DNA from: Nanobdellota archaeon
GTDB taxonomy: Archaea > Nanobdellota > Nanobdellia > Pacearchaeales > GW2011-AR1
DNA: 64,000 nt
Direction of reading: 5' to 3'
NCBI GenBank assembly: GCA_038045825.1
Contig: JBBSXJ010000004.1
Span: 11,465-75,464, forward strand
Under the pieces are notes generated by a model. That model did not search any database. It was not told the DNA's origin and worked only from the letters and a program-made list of their open reading frames with translations. Below, piece by piece: positions 3-46,700 of this stretch (position 1 is its first letter; each line of letters opens with the position of its first letter). The translations under genes and the position numbers were made by a program.

Positions 3-479
3 ATGAATCGAAAAGGGCATACAGGTACTGTGTTATTAGTCATTGGGGCTTTCTTCCTTGTTGTTTTTGCACTTTATGTTATGCTTTCAAACAATACTGA
101 CTTGACTTTGATTAAAGCTGAGTTAAGGAAACCATCTGATTTTGCTAAAACGAGTCATGAATATCTATTGAATTCTACTGAAGATATTATTGTTAAGTCT
201 ATAACTGAATCTAAGAGTTCTGCTGATTTTGAGAAGTCATTTAACGAATCATTAAGAAGGTATGCTTCTGAAAGGAGAGAATCTGGTTTGAATAACAACC
301 TTTATGCTAAACTTTCTTTAGGACAGTATTCATTGCTTCTGAAAGATGGAAAATATGAGCTTGTTGTTTCAGGAATATCTGAAAATTATAATGTTAATAA
401 TGATGAAATAAATTATGTTTATTCTTTGAAGGTTATTTTTGATAAGGCTAAAGTACTCTCTATGAAGGAAAGTTTATAA
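3..479 (+). CDS. Membrane-anchored hypothetical protein with candidate class III (type IV pilin-like) signal peptide
   Basis: ORF track. The N-terminus MNRKG/HTGTVLLVIGAFFLVVFALYV has a short basic leader, KG, then about 20 hydrophobic residues. It is the first gene of a same-strand cluster of similar proteins. Confidence 0.55.
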   Translation: MNRKGHTGTVLLVIGAFFLVVFALYVMLSNNTDLTLIKAELRKPSDFAKTSHEYLLNSTEDIIVKSITESKSSADFEKSFNESLRRYASERRESGLNNNLYAKLSLGQYSLLLKDGKYELVVSGISENYNVNNDEINYVYSLKVIFDKAKVLSMKESL

Positions 480-501
480 AGAACTTTTATCATTATTTAA
501 T

Positions 502-948
502 ATGGTGATTGAAAAGAGAAAGGGAGATGTTACTATTTCTACAGTCATATTAATTGTACTGGGTCTTGTTGTTCTTGTCATGTTAATAATTGGTTTTACT
601 CAAGGATTTGATACAATATTTGGTATTTTTGACAGAGCTCCTAGCGAATTACAGACTCTTGCAAGTGCATGTGAGGTATATATTCAAGGGAATTTAGCTA
701 TTGACTTTTGTTCGTATAGAGTTACTGAAGTAGATGGTAAGGATGAAATTGTTAATTGTAACGATCCTAGAATTCAATCTATTTATGTTGCTAAGGGCTT
801 GAATAATATGTCTTGCACTAGTCAAAATAACTTGGTAGCTATTTGTGATCAGATTCCTGCTGATGATAGAGGAACTGTAAAAGTAAACAATGTTGCTAGC
901 GACAAGATTACAACTACTGCTAAGTGCACTGCGCCTCTTACCCCTTAA
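502..948 (+). CDS. Small Cys-rich secreted/anchored protein with prepilin-like leader
   Basis: MVIEKRKG/DVTISTVILIVLGLVVLVMLIIGF fits the archaeal prepilin pattern. The ectodomain has 6 Cys. It is a paralog of 949..1389 (shared ELQxLAxxC..Y..FCxY..VNCxDxRI). Confidence 0.6.
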   Translation: MVIEKRKGDVTISTVILIVLGLVVLVMLIIGFTQGFDTIFGIFDRAPSELQTLASACEVYIQGNLAIDFCSYRVTEVDGKDEIVNCNDPRIQSIYVAKGLNNMSCTSQNNLVAICDQIPADDRGTVKVNNVASDKITTTAKCTAPLTP

Positions 949-1389
949 TTGAATATGGTTAAAAACAAAAAAACAAACAAGGTTAAAAGTGAATTGAAGA
1001 ATAGTGGTAAAAAGAGTTTTGGTTCTAAGCCTCTTGTTTGGGTTGTTTTGGGTGTTTTACTTTTAGTAGTTATAGTCATGCTTGTAAGAAAGGATGGAAG
1101 CAATTCAGGCTATGTTTCTAATGAGCTTCAAGCATTGGCTGATAATTGTGTATTTTATGTGAAAAATGTATATAGGGCTGAGTTTTGCGGATATAATTTA
1201 ATAAATGGAGATCTTGTTAACTGCAGAGACTCTAGAATTATTGATATACTTACATCTCAGGGGATTGATACAAGTTTTAGTTCATTGAACTGCAGAAATA
1301 TAGATATATACACTTTCAGAAAGGATGCTTGTTTGGGTCTTCCTGTAGATACTAAGATAGCAGACAAGACATGCGCTGATTACCAGTAA
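949..1389 (+). CDS. Small Cys-rich membrane-anchored protein, paralog of 502..948
   Basis: The track start is TTG; the ATG at 955 is more likely. It has a Lys-rich leader, a TM helix, then a 6-Cys domain alignable with the preceding gene. Confidence 0.6.
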   Translation: MNMVKNKKTNKVKSELKNSGKKSFGSKPLVWVVLGVLLLVVIVMLVRKDGSNSGYVSNELQALADNCVFYVKNVYRAEFCGYNLINGDLVNCRDSRIIDILTSQGIDTSFSSLNCRNIDIYTFRKDACLGLPVDTKIADKTCADYQ

Positions 1390-1425
1390 CAATGTTTTTA
1401 ATTACTCATTGATTCTTTTTGTTTA

Positions 1426-1824
1426 ATGGTTTGGAATCAGAAGCTCGCATTTAGAATATTTTTGGCTGTTTTGATTATAATTTTTGTACTTATATTTTAT
1501 TTCGTTTTTATAGATAAGGATGGTTCTGGAGCAGAGCAATTTTTTGGAGCAATAGGTTTTGAGTCTACAGAAAGTGCTGATGATAATCCTGCAGTTCCTT
1601 TACCTTCTTCCAGGGGAAGTTCTGCGGGATCATCTATGGGTTCTAGTGGGGGATCTGGAGGTTCTGGAATCGAGGGTTCTAGTATATTGAGGTTTTGTAC
1701 TTTTGATGCTTATCATACTATAACGAGTGATGTTCCATGTAGGTGTGGTTTTAGCGGTGTTTGTTATCAACCCGAGGGTATTTGCGACGCTACCTTTAAT
1801 AATGGTGAGGGTCTTTGTTCTTAA
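1426..1824 (+). CDS. Membrane-anchored protein with Gly/Ser linker and C-terminal Cys-rich module
   Basis: N-terminal TM helix, linker SSRGSSAGSSMGSSGGSGGSG, then 6 Cys in the last 45 aa. Same strand and tight spacing with the neighbouring genes. Confidence 0.55.
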   Translation: MVWNQKLAFRIFLAVLIIIFVLIFYFVFIDKDGSGAEQFFGAIGFESTESADDNPAVPLPSSRGSSAGSSMGSSGGSGGSGIEGSSILRFCTFDAYHTITSDVPCRCGFSGVCYQPEGICDATFNNGEGLCS

Positions 1825-1830
1825 AGGAAC

Positions 1831-2145
1831 ATGAATAGCAAGGGTTTTGATATAGCAATAACTACAATTATATTGATAATAATAGGTGTTGCAGTTCTTA
1901 TAGGATTTGTATTTTTTGTTAAAAATGGTTTTAGTTTTTTCAAGTCTGGAACTGATCCAATTTTGAAAACTCAGAATTTGGAAGCTACAAGGCAGGCTTG
2001 TGAATTGGTTTGTAGAAGTGGAAATGAAATTGCTTTCTGTTGTCAGTCTATAAAAATGAATGATGAGGAAATATATTGTTATGATTCCAGTTTGAATGTA
2101 GATTGCAACTTGGGATGTGCAACAGTAACTTGTCCTGCTGAATGA
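1831..2145 (+). CDS. Small Cys-rich protein with prepilin-like leader
   Basis: MNSKG/FDIAITTIILIIIGVAVLIGFVFF is a prepilin-like leader. There are 8 Cys in about 65 aa. LEATRQACELV..AFCC..IYCYD echoes the 502/949 paralog pattern. Confidence 0.6.
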   Translation: MNSKGFDIAITTIILIIIGVAVLIGFVFFVKNGFSFFKSGTDPILKTQNLEATRQACELVCRSGNEIAFCCQSIKMNDEEIYCYDSSLNVDCNLGCATVTCPAE

Positions 2146-3027: not shown

Positions 3028-4002
3028 TTAATGCTGGCTTAGAATTTCTTCAAGTATTTCTAGAGTATAACTTAATAAGAGAGGACCAACTATTATTCCT
3101 GCTAGTCCTAATACCTGAGTTCCACCCATGACTCCTAGAAGCATTACTACTGGATGTATGCTTGAGTCTTTTCCGGCTACTTTTGTTCTTAATATTGTGT
3201 CTAGATATATTGATATGAATAATCCAAATGCTAGAATTATTCCCGATGATATATAGTCTTGCTGGATTATTTTTATTATGAGGGTTGGAACCCATATTAT
3301 TGCAGGTCCTCCAGGTATGAAAGCAAATATTCCTATTAATGTTGCAAGTATTAAGTAGAAGTTTATTCCTGCTAACCAGAATCCTATTGCTGCTACTAAT
3401 GCTTGAATGAATGCTAAGAATAATGTGCCTTTGACTATTTTCTTTGTCGTGTCTGCCATGTCTTTTATCACTTTGTCTTTATTGTCGAAAGGAACATAGT
3501 TTCTCATTCTTGTGCTAAGTTTTGGCCAACTTAGAAGAAGATAGTAGATTATGAAAATCATTACAAAAAGAGATACTATTGATGCTGCTACAGATAGAGT
3601 TATTCCTGAAAGAGTTTGCACTCCAAAACTAAAGAATTTATTTGTAAGATCAGACAGATTGAAATTATATTTTTGTATTATCTCTAAGGTTTCTACTTTA
3701 GATATTAATAATGCAAGAGCTCCTGACTGGATTGCTCTATATATTTGAGAGATTATTTCTTTAATTACAAAGAATAAAGGGATGAATATGATGAGAATTG
3801 TTGCTGCAAGGGTTATACTTGCTGCCAACCATGAAGGCATCTTTCTTTCCAATTTTTTATGGATTGGATAGACTAGATATGTTACTATGAATGCACCTAT
3901 TATTGCTACAACATAATCTTTTATTATTATGAAAGACACAGTTACAAGAGCAAGAAGTATTATTATTGGAAGATAACGGTGGATCCACTCTTTTCTCATC
4001 AA
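3028..4002 (-). CDS. AI-2E family (PerM/UPF0118-like) transporter
   Basis: 324-aa polytopic membrane protein whose length and helix pattern are typical of this family. The call is made by eye only. Confidence 0.6.
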   Translation of the reverse strand: MMRKEWIHRYLPIIILLALVTVSFIIIKDYVVAIIGAFIVTYLVYPIHKKLERKMPSWLAASITLAATILIIFIPLFFVIKEIISQIYRAIQSGALALLISKVETLEIIQKYNFNLSDLTNKFFSFGVQTLSGITLSVAASIVSLFVMIFIIYYLLLSWPKLSTRMRNYVPFDNKDKVIKDMADTTKKIVKGTLFLAFIQALVAAIGFWLAGINFYLILATLIGIFAFIPGGPAIIWVPTLIIKIIQQDYISSGIILAFGLFISIYLDTILRTKVAGKDSSIHPVVMLLGVMGGTQVLGLAGIIVGPLLLSYTLEILEEILSQH

Positions 4003-4049
4003 ACATAGCGGTAAATAATATTAATAAAGTATCTCTTTTGTTATATATA

Positions 4050-4874
4050 ATGGGTGAATACATATTCTTGTATATTATTGGATTTATTGCTATATTATTT
4101 GCAGTGATTCAGGACCTGAGGACTAGAGAAATTGCTAACTGGCTTACATTTTCATTGATTGCTTTTGTTCTTGCATATAGGGCAATTTATTCTATTTATT
4201 CTAATAACTTCATGTTTTTTGTATATGGGCTTTTTGGAATATTTTTATTTGTAGGGCTTGGGTATCTTTTTTATTATGCAAGAGTTTTTGCTGGTGGAGA
4301 TGCTAAACTTCTTTTTGGATTAGGTGGAATATTCCCTTACTCTTCTTTGTTTGATTACGCTTACTATGGGGTTGGTTTTATATTATTGTTATTTACATCT
4401 GGAGTAATTTACACTTTATTTTACAGCTTCTTTTTGGTAAGACAAAATTATAATGATTTTAAAAAATCTTTTGTTAATCAAATAAAAAGACTCAAATATT
4501 TCTTTATTGTGTCTATTATTTTAGCTATTTTGGTCTTTTTTACTAGAGATGTTTATGATTCTGTAATTATAATAAATATATTCGCGGTTTTTGTATTATT
4601 ATCTCCTTTTCTTTTTGCTTATGTAAGGGCAGTTGAGAAGTCTTGCATGATTCAACTTATTTCTCCAGATAAACTTACTGAAGGAGATTGGTTAGAAAGA
4701 GATGTTTATGTAAATGGCAAGGTTATAAAAAAGAACTTTGCAGGATTGAACTTTAATCAGATACTCATTTTGAGAAAGAGAGGCAAGAAAGTAATGATAA
4801 AGACAGGGGTTCCATTTGCGCCTGCTTTTTTATTAGCACTTTTATTTTTTTATGTTTATATTAAAGTCCTTTGA
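4050..4874 (+). CDS. A24-family prepilin/preflagellin peptidase (FlaK/PibD/EppA-like)
   Basis: Polytopic membrane protein. Asp motif 1 lies in AVIQDLRTREIANW and Asp motif 2 in FAGGDAKLL (GxGD type). ATG 4050 is preferred because the 3966 track start overlaps the divergent gene 3028..4002. Confidence 0.75.
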   Translation: MGEYIFLYIIGFIAILFAVIQDLRTREIANWLTFSLIAFVLAYRAIYSIYSNNFMFFVYGLFGIFLFVGLGYLFYYARVFAGGDAKLLFGLGGIFPYSSLFDYAYYGVGFILLLFTSGVIYTLFYSFFLVRQNYNDFKKSFVNQIKRLKYFFIVSIILAILVFFTRDVYDSVIIINIFAVFVLLSPFLFAYVRAVEKSCMIQLISPDKLTEGDWLERDVYVNGKVIKKNFAGLNFNQILILRKRGKKVMIKTGVPFAPAFLLALLFFYVYIKVL

Positions 4875-29249: not shown

Positions 29250-29489
29250 TGTTTCTTCATATGTTTTTTGTTTAAAATGCTTTGTATTCTTTTCTGAAAG
29301 GGATAAGTGTATTGGAACTAATAAATCAGATAAAATAAAAGAATACTTTAATAAAATTGGCAGTTCTAATTTAAGACATATTGTTAGATATATTGAACGT
29401 TTTAATAACAATAATACTCTTTATCGAAACGATGTTGTAGATTATTATCAAAAACCTTTTTATAGGGATATTCTCTTCCCATTTAAAAC

Positions 29490-29560
29490 GGCCTCGTAAG
29501 CTAATGGTAGACTGTATCTTTGACGTGGATGATGCCCAAGTTCGATTCTTGGCGAGGCCA
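29490..29560 (+). tRNA. tRNA-Val (anticodon GAC)
   Basis: Acceptor GGCCTCG/CGAGGCC, T arm CCAAG-TTCGATT-CTTGG, anticodon arm TATCT-TTGACGT-GGATG (two G-U pairs). The D stem has one mismatch. Confidence 0.65.
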
Positions 29561-29582
29561 TTTGCTCAGGCAATTTAATTTT

Positions 29583-29597
29583 ACTTACTAAGTAAGT
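29583..29597. promoter_or_regulatory. Perfect 7-1-7 palindrome ACTTACT-A-AGTAAGT upstream of the RHH/giant-protein operon
   Basis: Read directly from the sequence. It is followed by the weaker inverted repeat TTAGT-9 nt-ACTAA (29597..29615) and the TATA-like ATATTTATATATA. The same hexamer recurs at 43145..43201. Confidence 0.5.
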
Positions 29598-29658
29598 TAG
29601 TCATTAAGTTACTAATATTTATATATATCATTTATTTGATTTATTTAGGTGATTTAGT

Positions 29659-29790
29659 TTGAAAAAGTATCTTTTATTAATTGAGGATGAGAAATTGTGG
29701 GAGAAGTTTAAGGAAAGTATAGATAAGGATATTAATAGTGCTTTGATGGAACTTGTTAAAGATAAAGTCAATAGGGGAGATAAAAAATGA
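29659..29790 (+). CDS. 43-aa ribbon-helix-helix-like small protein (putative regulator)
   Basis: Hand translation: (TTG)KKYLLLIEDEKLWEKFKESIDKDINSALMELVKDKVNRGDKK. AGGTGA lies 7 nt upstream. The stop overlaps the next start in ATGA. It is a paralog of 43207..43344. Confidence 0.55.
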   Translation: MKKYLLLIEDEKLWEKFKESIDKDINSALMELVKDKVNRGDKK

Positions 29791-31640
29791 CAAATAGAAT
29801 AGGACAAGTTACAGGATTTGTGATTGTTGCCTTGATTGTTGTTGCAGTTATTGGTTTATTTATTGCATTCAGAGGAAGTTTATTTGAGGATAATATCCCT
29901 GCTTCTCTTCAACCTGTTTATTCTCGTTATACTGAATGTGTTTCACAGGAAGTTTCTAATGGTGTTAAATTAATGCAATCTCAAGGCGGAAGAATTGACA
30001 TAGGAGAATTATCTTATGCTAGTGATTTCAATCCTTTTTCAAGCCACTTGAACTTTTTAGGATTCAAGATTCCTTATTGGCATGGTCTTTCTGGAAATAA
30101 TTTGGTTATAGAGAATGTACCTAGCATGAATGATATGGAAAATGAACTTGAAAATTTTATTGGTGATAGGGTTAATGATTGTGATTTTTCTGACTTTTAC
30201 TCTCAAGGCTTCTTGATAGATAAATCTGAAGCTTCAGCTTCTGTCGATATTCAAGATAGTTTTGTTTCTGTTGCTCTTGATTCTCCTTTGACTGTTTCAT
30301 TTGGAGAAACTACTGCGAGAAAATCCACTCATGAAATATCTATTGATACCAAACTTGGTACTTTGTATGCTAATGCTCTTTCTATATATAATAGTGAAAG
30401 AGAGAATTTGTTCTTTGGGAATTATGCTTTGGATGTTTTGCAATCATACGCTCCTGTTGATGGTGTTGAGATACAATGCTCTCCTAAAATATGGAAGACA
30501 GACGATATAGTTTCTGAGATTCAGAATGGATTGAGTACAAACATGGGAACAATATCATTCTCAGGAGATTCTTCAAGAGACGCTTATTTCAGTCAGAATT
30601 TAGGAATAGATGAACCTGTTAATATATTATATATGCCTCAGAATTTTCCCAGCAAAATAGAAGTTACTCCAGCTTCTCAGACTTTAATGGTTGCTGAACC
30701 TGTCGGAACGCAGGAAGGAATGGGAATAATGGGATTCTGTTATGTTCCTTATCACTTTATTTATGATTTGAGATTCCCTGTTCTTGTACAAATAGGAGAC
30801 GGAATAGACAATTTCCAGTTCCCTATGGTTGTAGATATTAATAACAATCTAGTTTCAGATTCTAATACTGGGGCGTTTGTTGAAGAGACTCAGGAAGTTG
30901 ATATTTGTTCATTTGCAGAAAATGATGTTACAGTTAATACTTATGACTCTTACTTGAATCCTGTTGCTGCAAATATTTCATATAAATGTTTTGACAATAC
31001 TTGTGGTCTTGGAGAAACTTCTTTTGCTCCTAGTGGTGCTGTATTTGAAGGAAGAATACCTGCATGTGTTAATGGAGAATTAATTGCTACAAGTGATGGA
31101 TATGTTGATTCGAAGATTACTTTCTCTTCAAACTCTGAAAGCTTTGCTGAAATAATATTAGAGAAGAAATATTCTGTTGATGTTGAGATTAAACTTGGAG
31201 GACAGACAATAAGAAATGCTACTGCTGTTGTTCATTTTGTGTCTGAAGACTTTTCAAGTAGTGCTGTTATTCCAGATTCATCAACTGTTGAATTAAAGGA
31301 AGGTCTTTACAAAATAGAAGCATTTGTTTATGGAAGCTCAAATGTGGTTATTCCATCAACAAGAAAGACAGAATGCTTTACAGTTAGCAGAGGGGGAATT
31401 GCAGGAATATTTGGAAGTACAAAAGAAGAATGTATTAATGTTGAAATCCCTGAAACTAGAATAGATTATGCGCTTAGGGGAGGCGGGAAAATTGAAGATT
31501 ATTACTTGCTTGCTGAGGAAATTGCAACTGGAAAGATTGTTATCGATGTAAGTGAACTTGCAACACCTAACTCTCTTGAGCAATTACAGTATAATTATGA
31601 AGTATTTGATACTCTTGGATTGGAGGTTGATTTTGAATGA
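29787..31640 (+). CDS. 617-aa N-terminally anchored extracellular protein, unknown family
   Basis: MTNRIG/QVTGFVIVALIVVAVIGLFIAF is an anchor or possible prepilin-like leader. It is ATGA-coupled to both flanking genes. No domain recognised. Confidence 0.7.
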   Translation: MTNRIGQVTGFVIVALIVVAVIGLFIAFRGSLFEDNIPASLQPVYSRYTECVSQEVSNGVKLMQSQGGRIDIGELSYASDFNPFSSHLNFLGFKIPYWHGLSGNNLVIENVPSMNDMENELENFIGDRVNDCDFSDFYSQGFLIDKSEASASVDIQDSFVSVALDSPLTVSFGETTARKSTHEISIDTKLGTLYANALSIYNSERENLFFGNYALDVLQSYAPVDGVEIQCSPKIWKTDDIVSEIQNGLSTNMGTISFSGDSSRDAYFSQNLGIDEPVNILYMPQNFPSKIEVTPASQTLMVAEPVGTQEGMGIMGFCYVPYHFIYDLRFPVLVQIGDGIDNFQFPMVVDINNNLVSDSNTGAFVEETQEVDICSFAENDVTVNTYDSYLNPVAANISYKCFDNTCGLGETSFAPSGAVFEGRIPACVNGELIATSDGYVDSKITFSSNSESFAEIILEKKYSVDVEIKLGGQTIRNATAVVHFVSEDFSSSAVIPDSSTVELKEGLYKIEAFVYGSSNVVIPSTRKTECFTVSRGGIAGIFGSTKEECINVEIPETRIDYALRGGGKIEDYYLLAEEIATGKIVIDVSELATPNSLEQLQYNYEVFDTLGLEVDFE

Positions 31641-34600
31641 GAAAATTATTTTTAATTTTTAGTATTGCATTGTTTTTACTTTCATTTGTTGGGGCGCAAG
31701 TAGTAGGTTCTGATGGAAACAATAATTTCTTTGGGAGTAGAACTGGAACTGCCAGCTTTGTAAATTATGGAAGCAGTTTTAGTAGCTATTATGGCTCTAA
31801 TGCTAATACTTATTGGCCTATTCTTTCTAACAGAGACTCTTCTTGTATGGGCAGTCAGGATATATTGATACAGGTTTCTCCTATAGGTTGTCAGCCTGCT
31901 GTCGTAAGGAGTGATTTATTGGCTGAACAGAATGTTCCAGTATTTTGTCAACTTGATTTATTACAGGTTAATCCTGCTATAAATATAAAACAGATTAGGA
32001 ATATAAGATTTGGAGGCAGATATCCTGAATATGTGGCTGGTGTTGGTTTCCATCCTGCGAATGCTGCTTTACGTACTACTAATTCTCTTTTAGGCACTCC
32101 TTTAGAGAGCAACATAGGATATGTTGTAGTTGTGTTGAAGAGAAATCCTAATGAAGATGAAATTCCAGAATTCTTCAACTTTACATTAAGTGCAAGTATT
32201 GATTATTATTCGGGAAATGCTGTTGGAATTGGAGCTACAGAAATGCTTCTTAAAGAAACTAATAATGAAGAGTGGGAGGTTGCAAAGAATAGACAGACAT
32301 TATTTGGAGGGAAGATGTCTGTGCGTGTTAAAGATACAGATTCAAACAATTCTATTGTCTTGCAGTTATATTCTGGAGATATAGAGTATTCACAAGTTAC
32401 ATTGCAAAAGAATTCTCCTCAGTCAAATGCAGTATATTTACCTGGAAGCTATTGTCAGACAGCATTGCAATTTACATACAATGATTTTGTTTCACCCTCT
32501 GCTATTGCAAGAGTTCAGGTTGATGAGGATGTTCTTGATTTGTATGAGGGTTCAAGATTTTTAAATAATAAATGTCTTGTTAGAAGAATTACAGATAATT
32601 CTGTTGATATAAATTGTGGAAGAGAAATAATTAATCTTACAACTGTTGCAAGATCTTTTGATGTTGGAGAAAGAGTTTATCTCGTAAATGCTAAATTCGA
32701 GGTTGTTAGGGATAAAGAATATACTATTTCTAAGATAAATAACGAGCCTTCTGGTACAACTTACACTCTTGAGGGTGTAGAGAAACCTGTTTCATCTACT
32801 TATTTAAGACCTGTTTCACAAGAAGTTTTATACGAGGCAACATATGGAGAATATGAAGATTACATTGTTAATGCTACAAGTTATTATGAAACAATTGCTA
32901 ATGAGTATGGTAATTTAAGAAAGCAACAGGAACTTGGGGAAGAGTATGGGGAAGTTGCATTAAGTGCTGCTATAGATCTTGCTATAGATTATAGTAAGAA
33001 AGTTACTGCTGATAGATTGATAAATAAATATATTGAATCATACCCTAACGGAAAGAACAAAGATAGATACTTAAGGGCTTTGAATGATCTTTATATAAAA
33101 GATAATTCTTTAGGAACAAAGAGTGTCCAGAGTGATGATGGTTATCATTTGTTTAAACTTATTGATATAACTCCTATTGCGAAGAAATCAAATGCTAAGA
33201 TATCTTGGGGATCAGGTCCTGAAAAATTAGTTAATTATGGAGAGACAGTTGGTTTTGATGTTGGAAGAATTACATTAGTAAAAGTAAGGGATAGACAGAC
33301 CGTTGATATATCTGCTGTTTGTAATAATAGAAATCTTCAGGATTTCAATAATAGTGTTAGATTGGGTTCTCCTACTGTGGTTACAGCATGTGGAGTTTCA
33401 TTAAGAGTTAATTCAATAGAATTTGAAGATTATGTTAAGCTTAGAGTTTCTCCGGTTACAAGAAGTGGGACTACTGGAAACTTTACTGTAGGGATAGGAA
33501 TAGAAAAAAGAGTTATTGAATTGACCCCCGATAAGGCTAGAAAGAAGATTGAGAATTTGAATAAGAGTATACAGAAGTGGGAGGCTATATCTGAGAAACT
33601 TGGAGAGGTTGTTACTGGATTAAAGACTGCTTGTTTTGCTACTGCAGGAGTATTGACTGTTAAGAACTTCTTTACTGGACTAAGTGGAGAGGCACTTGCT
33701 AGAAGAAGTGTCATGTCCGGAGATGATGGGTGGACTAGATTTTGTCAGAGTGAAGTTAATGCTGGAAGGCAAAGTTCATTGACTGCTTGTTATAATGCAA
33801 ATTCTGCAGATATAAGGAAAGATGTAAATGCAAGAGTTGACGCTATAGAAGAAACAAACGCTGTTACAAAACAGGTAGAAGATGGTGCTAAATATGTCAA
33901 TAGGGAAGGAGTATTTTCTGGAACTAACTTTGACGATAATAAGGCTAAGGAAGCTTTGATTGTTAAAATAAAACAAGAATGTTCTTCTCAACAATTAGGG
34001 CCTAAGAGTGCTGGAGCAAGTACACCTTACAATACTGTTCCAGATTTATTCCCTGCTGGATATAATGTTGATTCATACTCTTACACTCAGCTTAGAGATA
34101 TTTACTTCAATTGCAAGACTATTAATGGAGATGGAAGCTCAAGAGGAGATTTAGCAGCTAGATCTCAGCTTGACTCAATAGGTTATTCTATTAGTGAGAG
34201 ACTAAAGTATGATTCAGATATAAAGAGTTTACAGACTGCATCTAGTGGAACAGGTTTAGCAAATGCTCCTACTTACGTTGCTGGAAATGATAAAGCCATT
34301 ATTGGAGAATATTATGGTGGTAAAGTAAATGCTTTAGACTTTGGTCTTCCTTCGAGTGAAGTAGGTAAACCTGCTCAAGTTGTTTATTATAATTCTCAGC
34401 CATATTTATTTGTATTAAAAGAAGAGGCTGGAGGTAAACTAGTAACTGATAAAGTTTATTCTTTGAGTAAGGAAGGACAGGGTTATGTTGTTCCTTCTAG
34501 TTTTGCTGAAGCTACAACTGTAAAAGAGAAATTCTCGAGATTTGAAACTAGAGATTCTAAATCATACAATAATAAGTTTGCTCCGGGAGAGAGTACTGTT

Positions 34601-37276
34601 AGATACTTTGAGACAGAACCATACAAAGGATTGCCTGCTGTTGTTCCATTTGATTTGAATAGAGGATTTTATGCAGCAACTACTCAAGCTCTTCCTATAT
34701 TTGGAGGAACAAAGTCTTATGAAGATAATGGAAGACCTTCATCATTCTTTGTATGTAATGTTATGAAAGATAGCAACATAGGATTTTATTCTCCTAATTA
34801 TGGAGATGATGAATGTGTTCAGTTTAATATTTACACTGGGCAGTCATTTAGTAGCTTCCCTGGATTGACAGAACAAGAAACTAAGACAATTGTAAATAAT
34901 GCGATAAAAGCACTAAATGAGGCTTCTCAACAATATGGAAAGAGTAGCGTTAGAATTTTAGGTAATCAGATGAATGTTGGAAGAGCAGCGTCTCTTTTAC
35001 CTGGCTCGCAATGTCAAGATTATATGAGTCCTGAAGATTGTAAAATACTTTTCAATGTTTGTGATCCTGTAATTTGTCCTGCTTCTAGATGCAACTTTGG
35101 AGGAGAATATTATGTGTCTGATGTAATACAATCTGGTATTGTGGGAAGCGCTTTACTTTGTTTGCCTAATTACAAAGAAGGAATTGTAGCTCCTGTTTGT
35201 TTGACTGGAATAAAAGCTGGAATTGATGGTTATTTGAGTATCTTGAAGAGTCATCAACAATGTTTGCAGGAAGCTGTTGATACTGGAAGATATGTTGGAA
35301 TTTGTGATCAAATAAGTTCTGTATACTTGTGCGAGTTCTTCTGGAGACAGGCTGCTCCTCTTGCAAAGACATTACTTCCAAAATTAGTTGAAAGTGTTTA
35401 CTCTGGAGGACAAGGTTCAGTTAGGGGTGGAGGAGAATATATGACTGTTGCTTCTTCATGGCAAAATGCCCAAGATTCAGTTAGTTACTTTACACAGAGT
35501 TATGCTGTTAATTCATTTGAGGCATTTAGAGTAAGAAGTGTTGAAGAGGCAGGTACTGAAATTTGTAGAGCATTTATATCTGCTAAAGTTCCTAGTAGTT
35601 TCGATACATTAGTTGAACCTGACTCCCCTTCCCAGTTTCACGCATGGTATAGCTCAATAGATTATACTGATGCAACTGTTCCTGCGACATCACAGTATAA
35701 AGTATTTTATCATATATTTGCAGGAAAGGATAGAGGAGTTTCTTACTCTGTTTATTTGAGAGATCCTCCTTCTAGTTCTCAATATGCTTCCGCTCCTATA
35801 ATAACAGTTGCTACGGGATTTGTTGCTAGGGGACAATATGCAACTGAAAGTAAAGATTTTACTGCGCCTAAAGGATATCAGCAGTTGTGTGTAAGAATAA
35901 ACGATAAAGAAGAATGTGGATTCAAACAAGTTTCATCTAGTTTTGCAATAAATTATGTTAGAGATAAAGTAGTATCTGACGAATTGACTAGAAATAATAT
36001 TGTTAGTGAAACTGAATGTATATCTGGAAGCGTTAATCCTTCTGCTCTTCTTAATCCTAATTTACAAAGTGCTGCTGAAGAGGCATTTAATCCAGCAATA
36101 TATAATAGAGGAATTGTAAGAGTTTGTGCTACATCTAATCCTGGAAGCAAGACAGAGCCTAGCAGATATGTTGATGTTGGATATTGTGGAGAAGAAAGAC
36201 TCAGATGCTGGCTTGATAAGAATAGTCTTGATGAAGCAATAAGTGATATAAATGTTGGATTGAAGAACCAAACATTAAGTGAAGTTGAGACTATTCAGAA
36301 AGGATATTTGAATGAAGGAAAGAGATATGAATCGTCTGCTGATTTAGATTCTGGTCTTAATGATATTAAATCTGATGTTGATAAAGTGGATAAAATTACT
36401 ATTGGCGGTGTTATTACAGAGTTAGATGGGTTATTTGCAAAGGCTGCATTTGATCATTACAAGGCAGAGATACTGCTTTACAAAGCAAATGCATACAGAA
36501 ATGCTTTCATTAATTCTCTTGACAAAATAGAGATTTCAAATGCTCCTCAAAGTACATCTGAGAGTGCAGTTATCAACCAAAATGATTATACTTCTGTAGA
36601 TAGTTATGGTGATTTTGACTTGGATGCAGTTTATTTACATACAGCTTCTGGAAAGTACTATCAGGTTGTCTCTATTGATTCAGAAGTAGTAGTTTTGAGT
36701 AGATTGTTGAGATGGGGAGTTTATGATACATCTGATTCTATTGAAATCTTTAGAAATAGTGGTGCTGAAGTTTTTAGTTCGTTGGTAAGGTATAATGGAA
36801 ATGGTAACCTATTTGGTTCTGTAAACTCTGGGTCTACTATGTCTTCTAGTGGAAAAAGAATTTTGAGCTTTAAGGATACTTACAACCGAAGAAGTAGATC
36901 TTATATTTTACTAGATGAATCTTACACAGGAATTTATTTGCTTGGAAGTGGAATTTACTTGGATGAAAATTCTCAAGATATAGGGAGTGTAAGTGCGCAA
37001 GGAAAAATTAGATTTTTAGAAGCTGGCAGAAATATTGTTGAAACAACTTTTGGAGATGGAATGTATGAATTTTTAAACAATAGATTATGGGTTACAAATA
37101 TAGAAGGTAGATGCGATTTAGACATTTTAGCTGTTACTAGTGGCGTTGTTATCACTTCTTGTGTGAAAGTTCCTAATTGTACTAATCCTCAAGAGTGCGC
37201 AAACGTTCAGGGAGGAAATGAAGAAGATTATTATTGTCAAGAACAAATGTGTTACCCAGAAGATATGGGAAATTGA
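31637..37276 (+). CDS. 1879-aa secreted cysteine-rich giant protein, unknown family
   Basis: Uninterrupted 5.6-kb ORF with signal peptide MRKLFLIFSIALFLLSFVGA/QVV. A 10-Cys hydrophobic core lies at aa 1126-1232 and a hydrophobic segment at aa 657-684. No recognisable catalytic or adhesin motif. Confidence 0.85.
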   Translation: MRKLFLIFSIALFLLSFVGAQVVGSDGNNNFFGSRTGTASFVNYGSSFSSYYGSNANTYWPILSNRDSSCMGSQDILIQVSPIGCQPAVVRSDLLAEQNVPVFCQLDLLQVNPAINIKQIRNIRFGGRYPEYVAGVGFHPANAALRTTNSLLGTPLESNIGYVVVVLKRNPNEDEIPEFFNFTLSASIDYYSGNAVGIGATEMLLKETNNEEWEVAKNRQTLFGGKMSVRVKDTDSNNSIVLQLYSGDIEYSQVTLQKNSPQSNAVYLPGSYCQTALQFTYNDFVSPSAIARVQVDEDVLDLYEGSRFLNNKCLVRRITDNSVDINCGREIINLTTVARSFDVGERVYLVNAKFEVVRDKEYTISKINNEPSGTTYTLEGVEKPVSSTYLRPVSQEVLYEATYGEYEDYIVNATSYYETIANEYGNLRKQQELGEEYGEVALSAAIDLAIDYSKKVTADRLINKYIESYPNGKNKDRYLRALNDLYIKDNSLGTKSVQSDDGYHLFKLIDITPIAKKSNAKISWGSGPEKLVNYGETVGFDVGRITLVKVRDRQTVDISAVCNNRNLQDFNNSVRLGSPTVVTACGVSLRVNSIEFEDYVKLRVSPVTRSGTTGNFTVGIGIEKRVIELTPDKARKKIENLNKSIQKWEAISEKLGEVVTGLKTACFATAGVLTVKNFFTGLSGEALARRSVMSGDDGWTRFCQSEVNAGRQSSLTACYNANSADIRKDVNARVDAIEETNAVTKQVEDGAKYVNREGVFSGTNFDDNKAKEALIVKIKQECSSQQLGPKSAGASTPYNTVPDLFPAGYNVDSYSYTQLRDIYFNCKTINGDGSSRGDLAARSQLDSIGYSISERLKYDSDIKSLQTASSGTGLANAPTYVAGNDKAIIGEYYGGKVNALDFGLPSSEVGKPAQVVYYNSQPYLFVLKEEAGGKLVTDKVYSLSKEGQGYVVPSSFAEATTVKEKFSRFETRDSKSYNNKFAPGESTVRYFETEPYKGLPAVVPFDLNRGFYAATTQALPIFGGTKSYEDNGRPSSFFVCNVMKDSNIGFYSPNYGDDECVQFNIYTGQSFSSFPGLTEQETKTIVNNAIKALNEASQQYGKSSVRILGNQMNVGRAASLLPGSQCQDYMSPEDCKILFNVCDPVICPASRCNFGGEYYVSDVIQSGIVGSALLCLPNYKEGIVAPVCLTGIKAGIDGYLSILKSHQQCLQEAVDTGRYVGICDQISSVYLCEFFWRQAAPLAKTLLPKLVESVYSGGQGSVRGGGEYMTVASSWQNAQDSVSYFTQSYAVNSFEAFRVRSVEEAGTEICRAFISAKVPSSFDTLVEPDSPSQFHAWYSSIDYTDATVPATSQYKVFYHIFAGKDRGVSYSVYLRDPPSSSQYASAPIITVATGFVARGQYATESKDFTAPKGYQQLCVRINDKEECGFKQVSSSFAINYVRDKVVSDELTRNNIVSETECISGSVNPSALLNPNLQSAAEEAFNPAIYNRGIVRVCATSNPGSKTEPSRYVDVGYCGEERLRCWLDKNSLDEAISDINVGLKNQTLSEVETIQKGYLNEGKRYESSADLDSGLNDIKSDVDKVDKITIGGVITELDGLFAKAAFDHYKAEILLYKANAYRNAFINSLDKIEISNAPQSTSESAVINQNDYTSVDSYGDFDLDAVYLHTASGKYYQVVSIDSEVVVLSRLLRWGVYDTSDSIEIFRNSGAEVFSSLVRYNGNGNLFGSVNSGSTMSSSGKRILSFKDTYNRRSRSYILLDESYTGIYLLGSGIYLDENSQDIGSVSAQGKIRFLEAGRNIVETTFGDGMYEFLNNRLWVTNIEGRCDLDILAVTSGVVITSCVKVPNCTNPQECANVQGGNEEDYYCQEQMCYPEDMGN

Positions 37277-37292: not shown

Positions 37293-38126
37293 TTACTTTA
37301 GAGGATCTTGTTTAGGAGACTCAGGCTGCAGTTGAGGTTTTTGATCAGGAACTATTACACTAGGTATGATTAATCCTTTATTTCTTAATTCTTCTAACTT
37401 TCTTAAATCCTCTGTAGCTTGTATTGAGGCAGCTTCTGCAGCTCTTTGCTGCTCTAAGTATTCATTTCTTTCTTTATCATAGACTTCCCTCTTTATTTCA
37501 GTCCATAAGTATATTTGACGTGGATTTCTTAAACTTATTTCACCAGTAGCTAGATCTGTTAGTACTACTGCGTCTTTTGCTGGAGAGATTAATGTTCCTA
37601 ATCTATCTCCCTTTTCATTTCTTAAAATTATTGTGTAAATTTGATGTTCTTCTCCGAAGAAAGGTGTTGGAACAAAGGATTTTACATTTTTAGGTTTAAG
37701 AGTAGCTACTCCTGCAAGACCTTTTAACTCTGGAAGATTTACTTCTGCTTTATTTCCGTATGCTCCTGTTATTGCGAATGTAACCTCATCTTCTGGTTTA
37801 CCGTCTCCATCTCTATCCCATTTAATAGGAACGAATAAAGAATTTGTTTTTGATTCTAAATCTATTGTTCCAGCACTTCTAGATTCTCTTAGTCTTGAAT
37901 TTGCTACTGCATCTCCTGTGTAAATCCATTCATTTGGTTTTACAACATCTGCTTTTTTTATTCCATACCAACTTCCAGCAACATTAGCTAAATATAAATC
38001 AAAGCCTATTTGGTTTTGATTGCGACTACCCATACTGTTTTTAACATATGGTGAATTAAGATGTTGAATTGTTGAGCAAGCTCCTAATGATAATAATGCA
38101 CCTAATGTTGCTAAATTTTTTCTCAT
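37293..38126 (-). CDS. Putative lipoprotein (lipobox-like SLGAC), unknown function
   Basis: MRKNLATLGALLSLGAC/STIQ. C-terminal coiled region and a Pro/Gln-rich tail. Convergent with the giant gene. Confidence 0.6.
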   Translation of the reverse strand: MRKNLATLGALLSLGACSTIQHLNSPYVKNSMGSRNQNQIGFDLYLANVAGSWYGIKKADVVKPNEWIYTGDAVANSRLRESRSAGTIDLESKTNSLFVPIKWDRDGDGKPEDEVTFAITGAYGNKAEVNLPELKGLAGVATLKPKNVKSFVPTPFFGEEHQIYTIILRNEKGDRLGTLISPAKDAVVLTDLATGEISLRNPRQIYLWTEIKREVYDKERNEYLEQQRAAEAASIQATEDLRKLEELRNKGLIIPSVIVPDQKPQLQPESPKQDPLK

Positions 38127-43201: not shown

Positions 43202-43206
43202 ATGAA

Positions 43207-43344
43207 ATGAAGAACAAAAGTGTTAAGAAGTTTTTGCTTGAAATTCCAGCAGAGATATGGGAAAAATGGAAGGATAGGATTCCTAGATCTATATCAATAA
43301 ATAAGGCTTTGATCGAACTTTTACACAAGGAGAGTGTAAAATGA
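43207..43344 (+). CDS. 45-aa ribbon-helix-helix-like small protein, paralog of 29659..29790
   Basis: Hand translation: MKNKSVKKFLLEIPAEIWEKWKDRIPRSISINKALIELLHKESVK. The strand-helix-helix pattern resembles CopG/Arc. The stop overlaps the next start in ATGA. Confidence 0.6.
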   Translation: MKNKSVKKFLLEIPAEIWEKWKDRIPRSISINKALIELLHKESVK

Positions 43345-45263
43345 ATAAGCTTTATTCTATCAGCGTCTTATTTGTGTTATCTGTAACTTTAACTTCAGCA
43401 TTTCTTATGTCTGACCAAGGTAATAACGTTAGGTTGGCTAATGGTACATTGTTAGATTATGGAAATCTGACTATTTCTATACATGACTCTTCGTCTGGAG
43501 GGAATATGATATTCAATTCTACTGTTCAAGGTGCTATAATAAATGGATCATGGAACTTAATGATTAATCCTGATGTGCAATATGGTCAGTTTTATTGGAA
43601 AGATTATGAGATAAATGGGGAAGATTTAGACTTTGACGGAAATGAGAGACTGCAGTTTCAATCTTCATCTGGTTTGATAAATAATGTTTCTTTCCTCAAC
43701 TTTTCAATGATTGGCTCTTGCAGTAGTGGAAGTGCTATCAAACTTGTCTATTCAAATGGTAGTGTTGAATGCGAGAGTGTTTCTGGCGGCTCTAACTCTA
43801 CTGTTGACCTAACTAATTATGCTTTGAAGAACCAATCTGAAACTTTTACTGGAAATATTACTACAACTCAAACTGGATTTTTTGGTTGGATTGGAGGTTT
43901 GACCTCAAGAATAACAGGTTTATTTGTAAGAGATATTGATGCTTCTGGTAATGTAAATGCTTTAGGAAATGTAAGTGCTACATACATATTAGGGGATGGA
44001 AGTTTACTCACTAATTTGCCTGCTGCTGGGGCTGAATCAGATCCTATCTTTGTTGCTGAGAACTCTACATTATGGGGTGCTATTAATTCTAAATTATCTT
44101 CTTCAGATCAGAGATATAATGATACTGTTTTGGTTAACTCGGTTAACACTAATGCTAATATTAGATCCTTGGGTTTCTACAATATAAGTGAGGTTAATGG
44201 CTTGATTGCCGGTATAAATGGGGGTAACTCTAGTTTTAATCAATCATTAACTGATGTTTTGTATTATTCTACTAATAATCCACTTAATTTTATTAATAGT
44301 ACTTTTGTTTCTGCTTATAATGATAGCATTCTTGTTTTGAATGTGAACTCTTCTTTATGGAGTTATATAAACTCTAATCAAGCAAACTGGAATTCTACTT
44401 TTAACTTGACATATAACTCTATTTTGGGACAACAATGTCCTGTTGGAAGAATTGTTAATGGAACCTTGTTAAATGGCACGTTAAGTTGTATTATTGATTC
44501 TAGCGGATCTGGGAATGTTTTCAATCAAATATTAAATACTACTTCTAATGTTACTTTTGGAAATATTACTGTTAGTTCTAACTCTATATTCTCTGGAAAT
44601 GTAAGTGTTTCTACTGGATTTTTTGCTTATTTGGGGGGTGTTCTAAACAGGATTACAAAGATATTTGTTGTTGATTTGGATGTTTCAAATAATTTGAGTG
44701 TTGGTGGCAACATTTCTTCTCAATTTTATTTGGGCAGTTTGAATAGATCGACTTTTCCTAGTTCTTCTTGTTCTGGAACTGATAAGGTTACTGGATTAAA
44801 TGCTAATGGTAGCATTAATTGTGAAGCTGATGAGAGTGGATCAAGTAGTCAAACAATTCCTGTGAAATTTATGAATGTTTTGGCTGGCGCTGTAACTGAT
44901 ACTAATGCTCCTGATACAGAGAGGATTATTGGAAATAGTTATTATTTGGTTTGTACAAATACTACTGGATATAATAGATTTAGATATGGATATTCTCGTG
45001 CTTCTACAAATGGTGGAGCAAACGCAATAATATACATGAAATATATAGTTGCCCCTTCCACTACAATCACTGCAAGTTCGTATACTAATTTATCTAATTC
45101 TGACTCTCAAATATTGAGTTATACAAATCAGAACACTGCTGACTTGTCTGATTATTATACTATGGATGATGATCTAGAAGATATATGCATAGGAGCATTT
45201 CAAAGTGGGGGAAATGGAAATCTCGATCCACAATGGAGAAATATTTGGATTGAACTAAGTTAG
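43341..45263 (+). CDS. 640-aa secreted glycoprotein-like surface protein with internal repeats
   Basis: Signal MNKLYSISVLFVLSVTLTSA and very many NxS/T sequons. The module GFFGWIGGLTSRITGLFVRDIDASGNV is repeated as GFFAYLGGVLNRITKIFVVDLDVSNNL. There are three Cys-loop modules (C..G...NGS..C...SG). Confidence 0.8.
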   Translation: MNKLYSISVLFVLSVTLTSAFLMSDQGNNVRLANGTLLDYGNLTISIHDSSSGGNMIFNSTVQGAIINGSWNLMINPDVQYGQFYWKDYEINGEDLDFDGNERLQFQSSSGLINNVSFLNFSMIGSCSSGSAIKLVYSNGSVECESVSGGSNSTVDLTNYALKNQSETFTGNITTTQTGFFGWIGGLTSRITGLFVRDIDASGNVNALGNVSATYILGDGSLLTNLPAAGAESDPIFVAENSTLWGAINSKLSSSDQRYNDTVLVNSVNTNANIRSLGFYNISEVNGLIAGINGGNSSFNQSLTDVLYYSTNNPLNFINSTFVSAYNDSILVLNVNSSLWSYINSNQANWNSTFNLTYNSILGQQCPVGRIVNGTLLNGTLSCIIDSSGSGNVFNQILNTTSNVTFGNITVSSNSIFSGNVSVSTGFFAYLGGVLNRITKIFVVDLDVSNNLSVGGNISSQFYLGSLNRSTFPSSSCSGTDKVTGLNANGSINCEADESGSSSQTIPVKFMNVLAGAVTDTNAPDTERIIGNSYYLVCTNTTGYNRFRYGYSRASTNGGANAIIYMKYIVAPSTTITASSYTNLSNSDSQILSYTNQNTADLSDYYTMDDDLEDICIGAFQSGGNGNLDPQWRNIWIELS

Positions 45264-45275: not shown

Positions 45276-46700
45276 ATGATAAATAAAAATCTTTTTATTC
45301 AGGCAGTTTTTTTTGTCATCTTGACAAATGGAGCTTTCGCTTTGACTGGTGTTTCTAACAATTATTCTGTTTCAATGTTTGGAAATTCAATATCTACTGG
45401 AAATGCTAATTCTAATAGCTATATTGCTACTTTTCTTTCAGAAAATTTAGGAACAACTAGCAATGCCCAAAGTAATAGTTTTGTTGGAAATATAGGTTTT
45501 TTTGAAACAGGTTATTTTACAACTGTTAGTATAACTTCATATTCTATATCTCCTATAACTGCTGTTATTGGTTCTACAATTGAATTATCTATTACTGCCT
45601 CTAATGTTGAGTCGGTTTGGGTTGAAATTACCTCTCCAGACTCTCAAGTCCAGACTTTGAATTTAGTTAATGGACAGACTTTAAACTATCTACCAGTTCC
45701 ATCTATTGTTGGAAGATATCAGGTTATATTTTATGCTAGAGGTTCAACTGGTGCTATTGCTAGCATATCTGATTATTTTGATTTGATTGAGCAATCCTCT
45801 GGGAGTTCAAGTTCTTCAAGTGGATCTAGTGGATCTAGTGGAGGTGGAACAATACAGAGTTGCAATTACAACTGGGATTGTACTCCTTGGAGTCTTTGTT
45901 CTAATGGTTTGCAAACTAGAACTTGTGCAAATATAGGCACTTGCATTGGTCAGGAAAGCAGACCAATAGAATCTATGTCATGCTCTCAAGCACTTTTTGA
46001 TATAACTTTAAATTTGGAAGGTATTTCTTTAACTGATGGGAATGTTAGGTTTGATGTTAGTCTTATTGAACAGTTTGGTGTTGAAGAATTAGATGTACAC
46101 TTAAAATATTCTATAATTGATGAGGAGAATTATGAACTATTTAGTCAGATAGAAACTAAATCAATCAAAGGAAGTCTTTCTTTTGAAAAGATAATAGATT
46201 TTGATTTGGAAAATGGAAATTACATTTTAAGAGTTGATGTTTTATATGGCAACTTACAAAGAGCATTTGCTGAACAAAGTTTTGTTGTTTCTAATGGAAA
46301 TATTGATGAATTTGAAGGCAATGGTATTACAGGATTTACTTTAATTGATTATATAGACTCTAGAAGAATAACATTTTCAATACTTTCATTATTAATTTCT
46401 TTAACTTTGTTAATTACTTACTTTTATGTTTTAAGAGATAATAAAATTGTTAAGGTTTCTAATTCATTGAATAACACAATTGGTCTTGATGTTTATACTG
46501 GTGGTGGTATGAAATTAGGAAAAGTTTATGATATAATTCTTAAGGATAATATTATTTATGGAATAGCTGTTTTAATTGAAAAAGGTGTACCTGTCCATCA
46601 TGATAGAGTCTTGATAAGATATGAATATATAGATGATATTAACGATGTCGTACTGGTAAATTCAAGTGTTTTGGAAAACAATTCTCACGAATCTGCATAG
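45276..46700 (+). CDS. 474-aa surface protein: signal peptide, Ser/Gly linker, TSP1-like Cys module, TM helix, cytoplasmic PRC-barrel-like tail
   Basis: CNYNWDCTPWSLCSNGLQTRTC resembles a thrombospondin type-1 repeat. The TM helix is ITFSILSLLISLTLLITYFYVL. The tail GLDVYTGGGMKLGKVYDIIL...VLV resembles a PRC barrel. Confidence 0.75.
   Translation: MINKNLFIQAVFFVILTNGAFALTGVSNNYSVSMFGNSISTGNANSNSYIATFLSENLGTTSNAQSNSFVGNIGFFETGYFTTVSITSYSISPITAVIGSTIELSITASNVESVWVEITSPDSQVQTLNLVNGQTLNYLPVPSIVGRYQVIFYARGSTGAIASISDYFDLIEQSSGSSSSSSGSSGSSGGGTIQSCNYNWDCTPWSLCSNGLQTRTCANIGTCIGQESRPIESMSCSQALFDITLNLEGISLTDGNVRFDVSLIEQFGVEELDVHLKYSIIDEENYELFSQIETKSIKGSLSFEKIIDFDLENGNYILRVDVLYGNLQRAFAEQSFVVSNGNIDEFEGNGITGFTLIDYIDSRRITFSILSLLISLTLLITYFYVLRDNKIVKVSNSLNNTIGLDVYTGGGMKLGKVYDIILKDNIIYGIAVLIEKGVPVHHDRVLIRYEYIDDINDVVLVNSSVLENNSHESA

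Follow-up and report, generated by a model that had tools for sequence, protein, structure and literature searches.

We found that a 64,000-nt stretch of the genome of a Nanobdellota archaeon (contig JBBSXJ010000004.1, order Pacearchaeales; hereafter the window, to which all coordinates refer) carries a three-gene operon that is probably a device for engaging neighbouring (host) cells. Its products are a small protein of 43 amino acids (aa), a 617-aa protein with a prepilin-type signal (the partner) and a secreted giant of 1879 aa, and we read them as a surface complex that stands on a pilin-type anchor and would present exchangeable heads to neighbouring cell envelopes, a reading to which we assign a probability of about 0.5. 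All three open reading frames (ORFs), taken from the ORF list and its translations, lie on the forward strand: the small protein at 29659..29790 with a TTG start, beginning (M)KKYLLLIEDEKLWEKFKESIDKDINSALMELVKDKV, the partner at 29787..31640 and the giant at 31637..37276, the last two with ATG starts. An ATGA overlap joins them at each junction (29787-29790 and 31637-31640). The initial annotation, made by eye, had described these ORFs and both overlaps as we find them and had rightly put the share of the window spent on this one operon at 7.6 kb, or 12%. It had also noted the Shine-Dalgarno-like AGGTGA ahead of the TTG (29647-29652, forward strand), which is present but lies 6 nt away instead of 7. 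In relatives GAGG-type motifs occupy the same position, and for the giant a GGAGG ribosome-binding site (31622-31626, forward strand) can be read within the 3' end of the partner gene.

In Pacearchaeota-type DPANN archaea the operon belongs to the core genome, is inherited vertically and is near-universal. Among the GTDB species representatives scanned, the giant was present in at least 556 species-level genomes of Pacearchaeota, Woesearchaeota and Nanoarchaeota; a word-indexed search gave at least 437 homologues, every one of them unnamed or 'hypothetical' and derived from metagenome-assembled genomes (MAGs) of these three lineages, and the partner has at least 1278. Seeking remote annotated relatives, we searched 1.84 billion representative proteins with a profile of the giant's core and obtained 1087 clusters at 50% identity, 959 of them with E <= 1e-30. 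The 150 listed matches all align to essentially the whole core profile, some being fragments, and no bridge to a known family appeared among the matches listed. We then compared gene order in 84 fetched loci, 79 of which were informative in having enough 5' sequence. The partner gene lies immediately 5' of the giant in all 79, and the small ORF precedes the partner in 60 of the 79, so that the trio is conserved as such in relatives. Partner and giant overlap by 4 nt in 53 of 78 loci, and the small ORF and the partner by 4, 8 or 11 nt in 48 of 60. Because these overlap lengths are conserved across loci, the translational coupling proposed in the initial annotation can be regarded as a conserved trait; with overlapping stop and start codons, synthesis of the giant is tied to that of the partner, an arrangement that would help to keep the two in matched amounts and fits a fixed complex.

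The position of the operon is equally constant. In the 575-885 kb contigs of distant relatives it lies between S3Ae/tRNA-Val and TFB/S8e, and in the window, which has the low GC content (~32%) of its archaeal source, the locus is surrounded by genes for TFB, ribosomal proteins S3Ae and S8e, SRP54, RadA and aminoacyl-tRNA synthetases. The conserved 5' boundary is marked by a tRNA-Val(GAC) gene (29490..29560, forward strand, found by ARAGORN and Rfam), and a tRNA-like sequence likewise stands 5' of the operon in relatives L001-L003. We rejected a viral or mobile origin, given this fixed synteny with housekeeping genes and the finding that IMG/VR viral contigs yielded no relative. An apparent second copy in one MAG (P0137/P0140) is unlikely to be a paralog, as its locus architecture is identical, and is probably a strain variant. 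We also observed that two sequences carrying the archaeal operon are labelled as bacterial (L053, DAOTCN010000002.1, and P0036, under the names 'Candidatus Paceibacterota bacterium' and 'Candidatus Levybacteria bacterium'); the probable cause is mis-binning or mislabelling of archaeal sequence.

The partner's N-terminus consists of a leader (residues 1-6), a predicted cleavage site G6/Q7 (a slash marks cleavage throughout) and a hydrophobic helix (7-28), which together make up a class III, or prepilin-type, signal. The initial annotation had correctly seen an anchored protein, and the kind of anchor can now be specified. Across the 119 homologues used for signal statistics, position -1 is Gly or Ala in 117, position +1 is Gln in 116 and position +5 is Phe in 111, followed by ~22 hydrophobic residues; Lys or Arg occupies position -2 in 95 and position -3 in 103, and the leader measures 4-40 aa. 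The motif of the family can be summarized as [KR][KR]G/Q. It matches that of the EppA-dependent pilins of Methanococcus maripaludis, which are processed at the sites KGQV, KGQL and KGQI with a conserved +1 Gln (PMC4371748). The partner is like these pilins (EpdA-E) and other archaeal class III proteins in its short charged leader, its [KR]G/Q site with +1 Gln and its run of ~22 hydrophobic residues, and a gene for a prepilin peptidase is present in the window (Peptidase_A24, PF01478, at 3966..4874; 44.2 bits against a cut-off of 26.5). It differs from them in having a multidomain ectodomain and 617 aa where they have ~100-200, Phe instead of Glu at +5, and no pilus assembly genes adjacent, and its incorporation into a fibre is a prediction. 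As a separate observation near the peptidase gene, five Cys-rich small ORFs (104-158 aa), each with a hydrophobic N-terminal segment, occupy 3..2145, 2 kb away from it. Three of the five have a clear pilin-like leader of the [KR]G type (RKG/HTG.., RKG/DVT.. and SKG/FDI..), and none has the +1 Gln of the partner.

Behind the signal, the AlphaFold2 model of the partner (predicted local distance difference test, pLDDT, 83; predicted TM-score, pTM, 0.59) shows a helix at residues 4-32, a second at 39-65, an alpha/beta domain at ~39-360 and three tandem beta-sandwiches at ~377-617. Foldseek matched the model to strings of CnaB/Ig-like domains, including the B. anthracis TIE protein (2e-6), the pilus adhesin SpaC (3e-5) and ancillary pilins. 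The low TM-scores of the partner's Foldseek matches, considered below for the S-layer protein SlaB, mean that they describe architecture and not ancestry. Ten of the partner's Cys residues are invariant.

The giant's N-terminus, MRKLFLIFSIALFLLSFVGA/QVV, reads by eye as a Sec signal peptide (residues 1-20), as it had to the initial annotation, and beyond it the protein has no hydrophobic stretch of transmembrane (TM) strength. The signal peptide is followed by a conserved, disulfide-rich core (~41-1560) and a hypervariable tail (~1600-1879; residues 1600-1879, at 36434..37273 on the forward strand, by comparison with relatives). The protein had been called Cys-rich; as an enrichment this is moderate (2.0% Cys, where the rest of the window has 0.98%), and the real signal is that 30 of the 38 Cys are invariant among 115 homologues, while the six at the extreme C-terminus are not conserved. 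Other exported proteins of the window are Cys-rich too, which suggests that this organism generally uses disulfides in its extracellular proteins. In the same 115 homologues, conservation is highest at residues 81-200, 601-720 and, most markedly, 1121-1560, with the query residue kept in ~65-80%, and residues 1560-1879 are essentially unalignable. The most conserved block (residues 1126-1232, at 35012..35332 on the forward strand) has ten invariant Cys and a query-residue identity of 77-80%. It holds the Gly/Ala-rich, moderately hydrophobic segments SGIVGSALLCLP and VCLTGIKAGIDGYLSIL, which are among the most hydrophobic of the mature giant, and the most hydrophobic of its conserved core (Kyte-Doolittle 1.2-1.3), and stay below TM strength. 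N-glycosylation sequons number nine in the whole protein, or 0.48 per 100 aa.

The giant's core and the N-terminal domain of the partner are without detectable relatives of known function. Pfam and NCBIfam gave no family for the 617-aa or the 1879-aa protein, PHROGs gave no match to either, and no PDB sequence matched giant or partner by phmmer or by profiles (52 and 47 homologues). An AlphaFold2 model of the giant, covering residues 560-1640 and based on an alignment of 43 sequences, had no Foldseek match at E <= 1e-3 in PDB and BFVD; its similarities were only those of generic beta-sandwiches, such as ApaG and the FnIII-like domains of GH3 enzymes. That no domain of the giant had been recognizable by eye is thus matched by the absence of a confident hit in all of these searches. 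Within the model, the stretch at ~1137-1330 (window 35012-35650) is predicted to be helical despite having the lowest pLDDT.

The tail behaves differently from the core. In a sister strain (P0001/L092), residues 1-1600 of the giant are 99.75% identical to those of the window and the tail 92.8%; a further relative (P0002) shows 87% identity in the core and has another tail in place of the window's. Window and sister strain have identical DNA from 28637 to 32636 and 11 differences from 32637 to 36136, followed by 91 differences within the 2 kb that comprise the tail and the next gene. Among the 44 giant codons that differ, 35 fall in codons 1632-1870, with 20 non-synonymous and 15 synonymous differences. 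Since both kinds of change are clustered together, they point to recombination, with sequence imported from elsewhere, and give no indication of positive selection acting on the tail through point mutations. The gene beyond the tail (37293..38126, reverse strand) encodes a predicted 277-aa lipoprotein with the lipobox LGA/C (MRKNLATLGALLSLGA/C); it is convergent to the giant and outside the transcription unit. The lipoprotein is 90.6% identical in the sister strain, where the 8 kb upstream are nearly identical, and its gene is confined to loci with a related tail (L092, L007 and, weakly, L005). Locus L007 shares 76% identity with the window in the core, 65% in the tail and 52% in the lipoprotein, and L011 shares 94% in the core and 32% in the tail and lacks the lipoprotein gene. 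Across loci the gene downstream of the giant is convergent and variable or absent, and it co-varies with the tail in three loci. These comparisons suggest that the tail is exchanged together with the adjacent gene, as a tail-lipoprotein cassette, and the 277-aa lipoprotein may be the cognate partner of the giant's tail.

What such tails can carry is seen in relatives. An SLT lytic transglycosylase domain scores above the Pfam cut-off in 4 of 20 members with long tails, and other Pfam domains found in tails are Phage_lysozyme2 (a phage-tail lysozyme), DUF1615, LRR, TSP_3, DUF4347 and ankyrin; a GH3 N-domain occupies residues 2131-2426 of a 2435-aa relative. Every one of these domains is C-terminal. 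A surface or host-contact apparatus, as suggested in the initial annotation, is still something we infer, and it is now better grounded because the variable tails of relatives carry murein hydrolases and binding repeats.

The same observations could be explained by a polymorphic effector-immunity system, in which the core delivers or presents a toxic or lytic C-terminal domain and the variable lipoprotein is the cognate immunity or neutralizing protein. As in the polymorphic toxins CdiA, Rhs and MafB, a conserved N-terminal bulk is followed by swappable, cassette-like C-terminal modules, some of which are lytic enzymes in relatives, and the neighbouring gene co-varies with the tail: tail and 277-aa lipoprotein diverge together, and their co-occurrence is out of step with core phylogeny (L007, L011). 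The giant nevertheless shares no domains with those toxins, and Pfam and NCBIfam found no toxin-trafficking or pre-toxin domain (TPS, Rhs/YD, LXG or PT-VENN). Its neighbour, instead of being an immunity gene in the same orientation, is convergent, not co-transcribed, and absent or unrelated in most loci, and a single, syntenic, near-universal locus is unusual for polymorphic toxins. Moreover, many of the tails are binding repeats (LRR, Ank, TSP3) and not enzymes, and immunity to SLT, lysozyme or GH3 domains is superfluous in an archaeon that has no murein. We therefore consider an effector-immunity system unlikely, if well worth keeping in view; it overlaps with the device for engaging neighbouring cells that we favour, contact-dependent action on another cell being common to both.

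The first and smallest gene of the operon appears to serve its regulation. The small protein has the consensus MKKYLLLIEDEKLWEKFKxxIxKDINSEIIELIKEKV, with identities of 55-91% across loci; its start codon is ATG in 48 of them and GTG in the other 12. That it is a real coding gene is supported by its evolution, with an entropy of 1.27 bits at the third codon position against 0.63 at the first and 0.35 at the second, and by at least 832 protein clusters, none of them named. A strand-helix-helix pattern can be made out by eye only (KKYLLLI, then EDEKLWEKFKESI, then DINSALMELVKDKV), and the presumed strand is unusually hydrophobic. Upstream of the gene, the perfect palindrome ACTTACT-A-AGTAAGT reported in the initial annotation is exact at 29583-29597, and it has turned out to be one stretch of a longer element of 40 bp with a 4-nt periodicity, the (TTAN)n array at 29580..29617 (no strand assigned). 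The array abuts the B recognition element (BRE) and TATA box. Its self-match is 0.63, 0.60 and 0.60 at lags of 4, 8 and 12 nt, against 0.11-0.30 at other lags. Among 58 loci with the small ORF, 53 show the consensus ..TTA.TTA.TTA.TAA.TTA.TTA.TTAATAAGAAAGA-TTTATATA, and all 16 loci without this ORF lack the array. The putative archaeal promoter element TTTATATA (29618..29625, forward strand) lies 41 nt upstream of the start codon in the window, and the position of the TATA box is conserved across loci, typically 38-46 nt from the start codon. One distant relative (L001), which has neither small ORF nor array, carries genes for two small exported proteins of 167 and 195 aa inserted between the tRNA and the partner gene (L001 7086-8148).

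Array and small protein recur together at a second site. The window holds just two (TTAN)n arrays, at 29580-29617 and 43144-43200, and with up to 2 mismatches the window contains 3 matches to the palindrome, where 0.29 would be expected; the match at 43189-43203 is the sole one away from the original site. The second array belongs to another operon (43136-46700), in which it is accompanied by a TATA-like box and followed by a 45-aa ORF (43207..43344) that is a paralog of the 43-aa protein (49% identical, E = 4e-7). This ORF in turn overlaps by ATGA the gene of a 640-aa secreted protein (43341..45263) with 33 N-x-S/T sequons, or 5.2 per 100 aa, and the next gene (45276..46700) encodes a 474-aa protein with a signal peptide, a Ser-rich linker, a TM helix and a PRC barrel. 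Loci L088-L090 share this design, and an S-layer or surface-glycoprotein operon is a plausible identity. Since the array is tied to the small ORF and the same module stands at two surface-protein operons, the small proteins look like dedicated regulators. The 43-aa protein is accordingly named here as a candidate DNA-binding autoregulator, and the array at 29580-29617 as its candidate operator. In size (~45 aa), in the pattern seen by eye and in co-transcription with possible targets, the small protein resembles ribbon-helix-helix (RHH) regulators such as Arc, MetJ, CopG and the archaeal CdrS. The operator of MetJ consists of tandem 8-bp boxes, and the (TTAN)n array beside the promoter may be compared, by analogy, with such repeated RHH operator units.

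In the device for engaging neighbouring cells as we picture it, the prepilin peptidase would cut the 617-aa protein after Gly6, and the partner's N-terminal hydrophobic helix would then act as a membrane anchor, build the protein into a type IV pilus-like fibre or position it at the tip of such a fibre, with its three beta-sandwich domains forming a stalk. The giant would be exported by Sec, folded with ~15 conserved disulfides and held at the cell surface by the partner. Its conserved 1,600-aa core would be a scaffold or machine and its tail an exchangeable head acting on the envelope of a host or competitor cell nearby; in relatives this head would be a peptidoglycan hydrolase or a protein-binding repeat, and here a domain of unknown type that varies with the lipoprotein gene. 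The 43-aa protein would bind the (TTAN)n array beside the TATA box and regulate the operon, as its paralog would at the second, surface-glycoprotein operon.

A large secreted protein paired with a smaller anchored stalk protein, both co-transcribed and universal in the lineage, is also what one would expect of a two-component S-layer or outer canopy like SlaA/SlaB of the Sulfolobales, with the giant as lattice and the 617-aa protein as membrane stalk. The partner's string of beta-sandwiches does match SlaB (chain 8qox_B, E = 7e-5), with TM-scores of 0.12 and 0.16 and a root-mean-square deviation of 21 A; such values make the match a generic one, and many unrelated Ig/CnaB strings match likewise. 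SlaB also differs from the partner in having a C-terminal TM helix where the partner has an N-terminal pilin-type anchor. The giant, for its part, has no match to any S-layer protein in Pfam, PDB sequences or Foldseek searches, and it is unlike SlaA/SlaB-type S-layer proteins in several respects: its core is conserved at 75-80% over residues 1121-1440 across an order-level clade, far above what is usual for them, it has 30 invariant Cys, and it has just 0.48 sequons per 100 aa. Hydrolase and ankyrin tails would be unexpected on lattice proteins, and the 640-aa protein at 43341..45263, with its 5.2 sequons per 100 aa, is a much better candidate for the lattice. Overall, an S-layer role for the giant seems quite doubtful.

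We judge it similarly improbable that the complex is an extracellular enzyme or envelope-biogenesis assembly working on its own cell, for example in the remodelling of a wall or pseudo-wall, in the degradation of nutrient polymers or as an accessory of pilus assembly. Several features would suit a housekeeping activity: partner and giant are found universally, in synteny with housekeeping genes and with strong conservation; invariant polar residues (D216, E292, H323 and N354) are present in the alpha/beta domain of the partner; and the GH3 and SLT domains of tails are enzymes. Yet no catalytic family was recognized in the 2,200 conserved residues, and a hypervariable, cassette-like tail better fits recognition or conflict than housekeeping. 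Moreover, archaeal envelopes offer murein hydrolases no substrate.

Very unlikely, in our view, is a membrane-active device in which the Cys-framed, Gly/Ala-rich block, as a fusogen or pore former, enters the membrane of the partner cell and would open the cytoplasmic bridge typical of DPANN-host pairs: the most conserved segments of the mature giant are indeed among its most hydrophobic and rich in Gly, Ala and Ser, their AlphaFold2 pLDDT below 50 is possible for a conformationally switching region, and wall-degrading tails would clear the way to the membrane, but their hydrophobicity does not reach TM level, Foldseek comparison with PDB and BFVD showed no similarity to a known fusogen or pore former, the low pLDDT may reflect nothing else than a shallow, low-diversity alignment of 43 sequences, and the idea is purely inferential. 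Combined with the pilin-anchored stalk and a head that recognizes or digests the host wall, such a hydrophobic core opening a pore or fusion bridge would make a Pacearchaeota-type contact machine; we regard this combination as a long shot. If true, it would represent a class of fusogen or pore former without a relative among the known ones.

Several findings weigh against the pilin-anchored surface complex that we prefer. At the partner, the window's own leader has Arg at -3 but Ile at -2, where the family motif has Lys or Arg. Class III signals are also found on non-pilus proteins, such as the substrate-binding proteins of Sulfolobus (PMC4371748), so that a link to pili is not required, and a scan of part of the window's ORFs revealed no pilus ATPase or platform gene. 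At the giant, the AlphaFold2 model of residues 560-1640 is mediocre (pLDDT 66.8, pTM 0.40), with helical bundles and beta-rich domains, and its confidence is lowest in the most conserved block (~1137-1330), at pLDDT values below 50 and in places of 25-40; this could come from shallow alignment diversity, the need for the partner or a switchable conformation. Neither homologues nor fold matches of known function were found for the core, and 'scaffold or machine' is accordingly a label and not a finding. The window giant's tail has no recognizable domain in Pfam or NCBIfam, and in relatives such domains are found in a minority of tails only. At the small protein, the RHH-like character claimed in the initial annotation is not borne out. 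Membership was tried by PDB profile search, by Pfam scans of individual members and through the 45-aa paralog, and the best Arc-type matches, with E = 0.2-0.7, were not significant (PDB pArc, E = 0.71; Pfam Arc, E = 0.2 in 1 of 35 members); the paralog had no RHH match either. 'RHH-like' therefore describes a pattern made out by eye, and DNA binding by the small protein is putative; its match to DUF7754 has E = 0.0018-0.025. Finally, the array could simply be the promoter element of the small gene.

Other known systems offer partial parallels. Next to their pilin-like proteins, the minor-pilin/PilY1 (PilC) modules of bacterial type IV pili include a large Sec-exported non-pilin that is presumed to be held by them. 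These tip-adhesin modules follow a logic similar to that of partner and giant, as an analogy only: PilY1 has no sequence or fold similarity to the giant, which is larger and disulfide-rich, and Pfam gave no PilY1 or vWA/beta-propeller signal. The SPEARE proteins of Ca. Nanohaloarchaeum antarcticus are reportedly secreted giants, proposed to act in host interaction, with protease, adhesion and endonuclease domains. They are like the giant in being very large secreted DPANN proteins and are unrelated to it in sequence, and their domains were not detected in it with Pfam and NCBIfam. A closer counterpart is fam00969, described in 2021 as large extracellular SLT-domain proteins of Pacearchaeota and Woesearchaeota (PMC8204110). 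As far as that description goes, fam00969 agrees with the giant family in lineage, size (up to ~3,000 aa) and predicted extracellular location; the SLT domain that defines it is the one found in the minority of long tails counted above, and is absent from the window giant and most family members. Going by this description, the giant family is probably the same as fam00969 or overlaps with it. The 1,600-aa core, the pilin-type partner, the small regulator and the exchange of tails are not mentioned in the passages available from that paper.

In the searchable literature we found no characterization of the giant family, beyond at most its SLT-bearing members as a lineage-specific family in the portions accessible there. 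Nor did we find in it a description of the trio operon, the partner's pilin-type signal or the framework of invariant cysteines, or of the module of periodic array and small protein at two operons and the exchange of tail and lipoprotein. By analogy, the operon functionally resembles pilin-associated adhesins on the one hand and polymorphic C-terminal effectors on the other.

Elsewhere in the window, we observed three features apart from the operon. The RadA/Rad51 recombinase gene (8458-10977) is split by an intein that carries a LAGLIDADG homing endonuclease. The leucyl-tRNA synthetase (59032-61932) has a NUDIX domain inserted after its editing domain (residues 378-494). There are two tRNA-Gln(UUG) genes (17932-18007 and 27188-27274), the second of which, 87 nt in length, may have an extended arm or include an intron.

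In groundwater and lakes, Pacearchaeota and their relatives rank among the uncultured archaea of highest abundance, and to our knowledge it is unknown how they attach to cells and draw resources from them. The operon is near-universal and core-genomic, and it takes up ~7.6 kb of a very small genome to encode chiefly extracellular parts. Its giant family represents 1,600 strongly conserved residues without a known fold relative. The anchor, the wall-degrading or binding heads and the dedicated small regulator are concrete, testable candidates for parts of a host-contact apparatus, and the type of tail could serve as a marker to match host identity in metagenomes.

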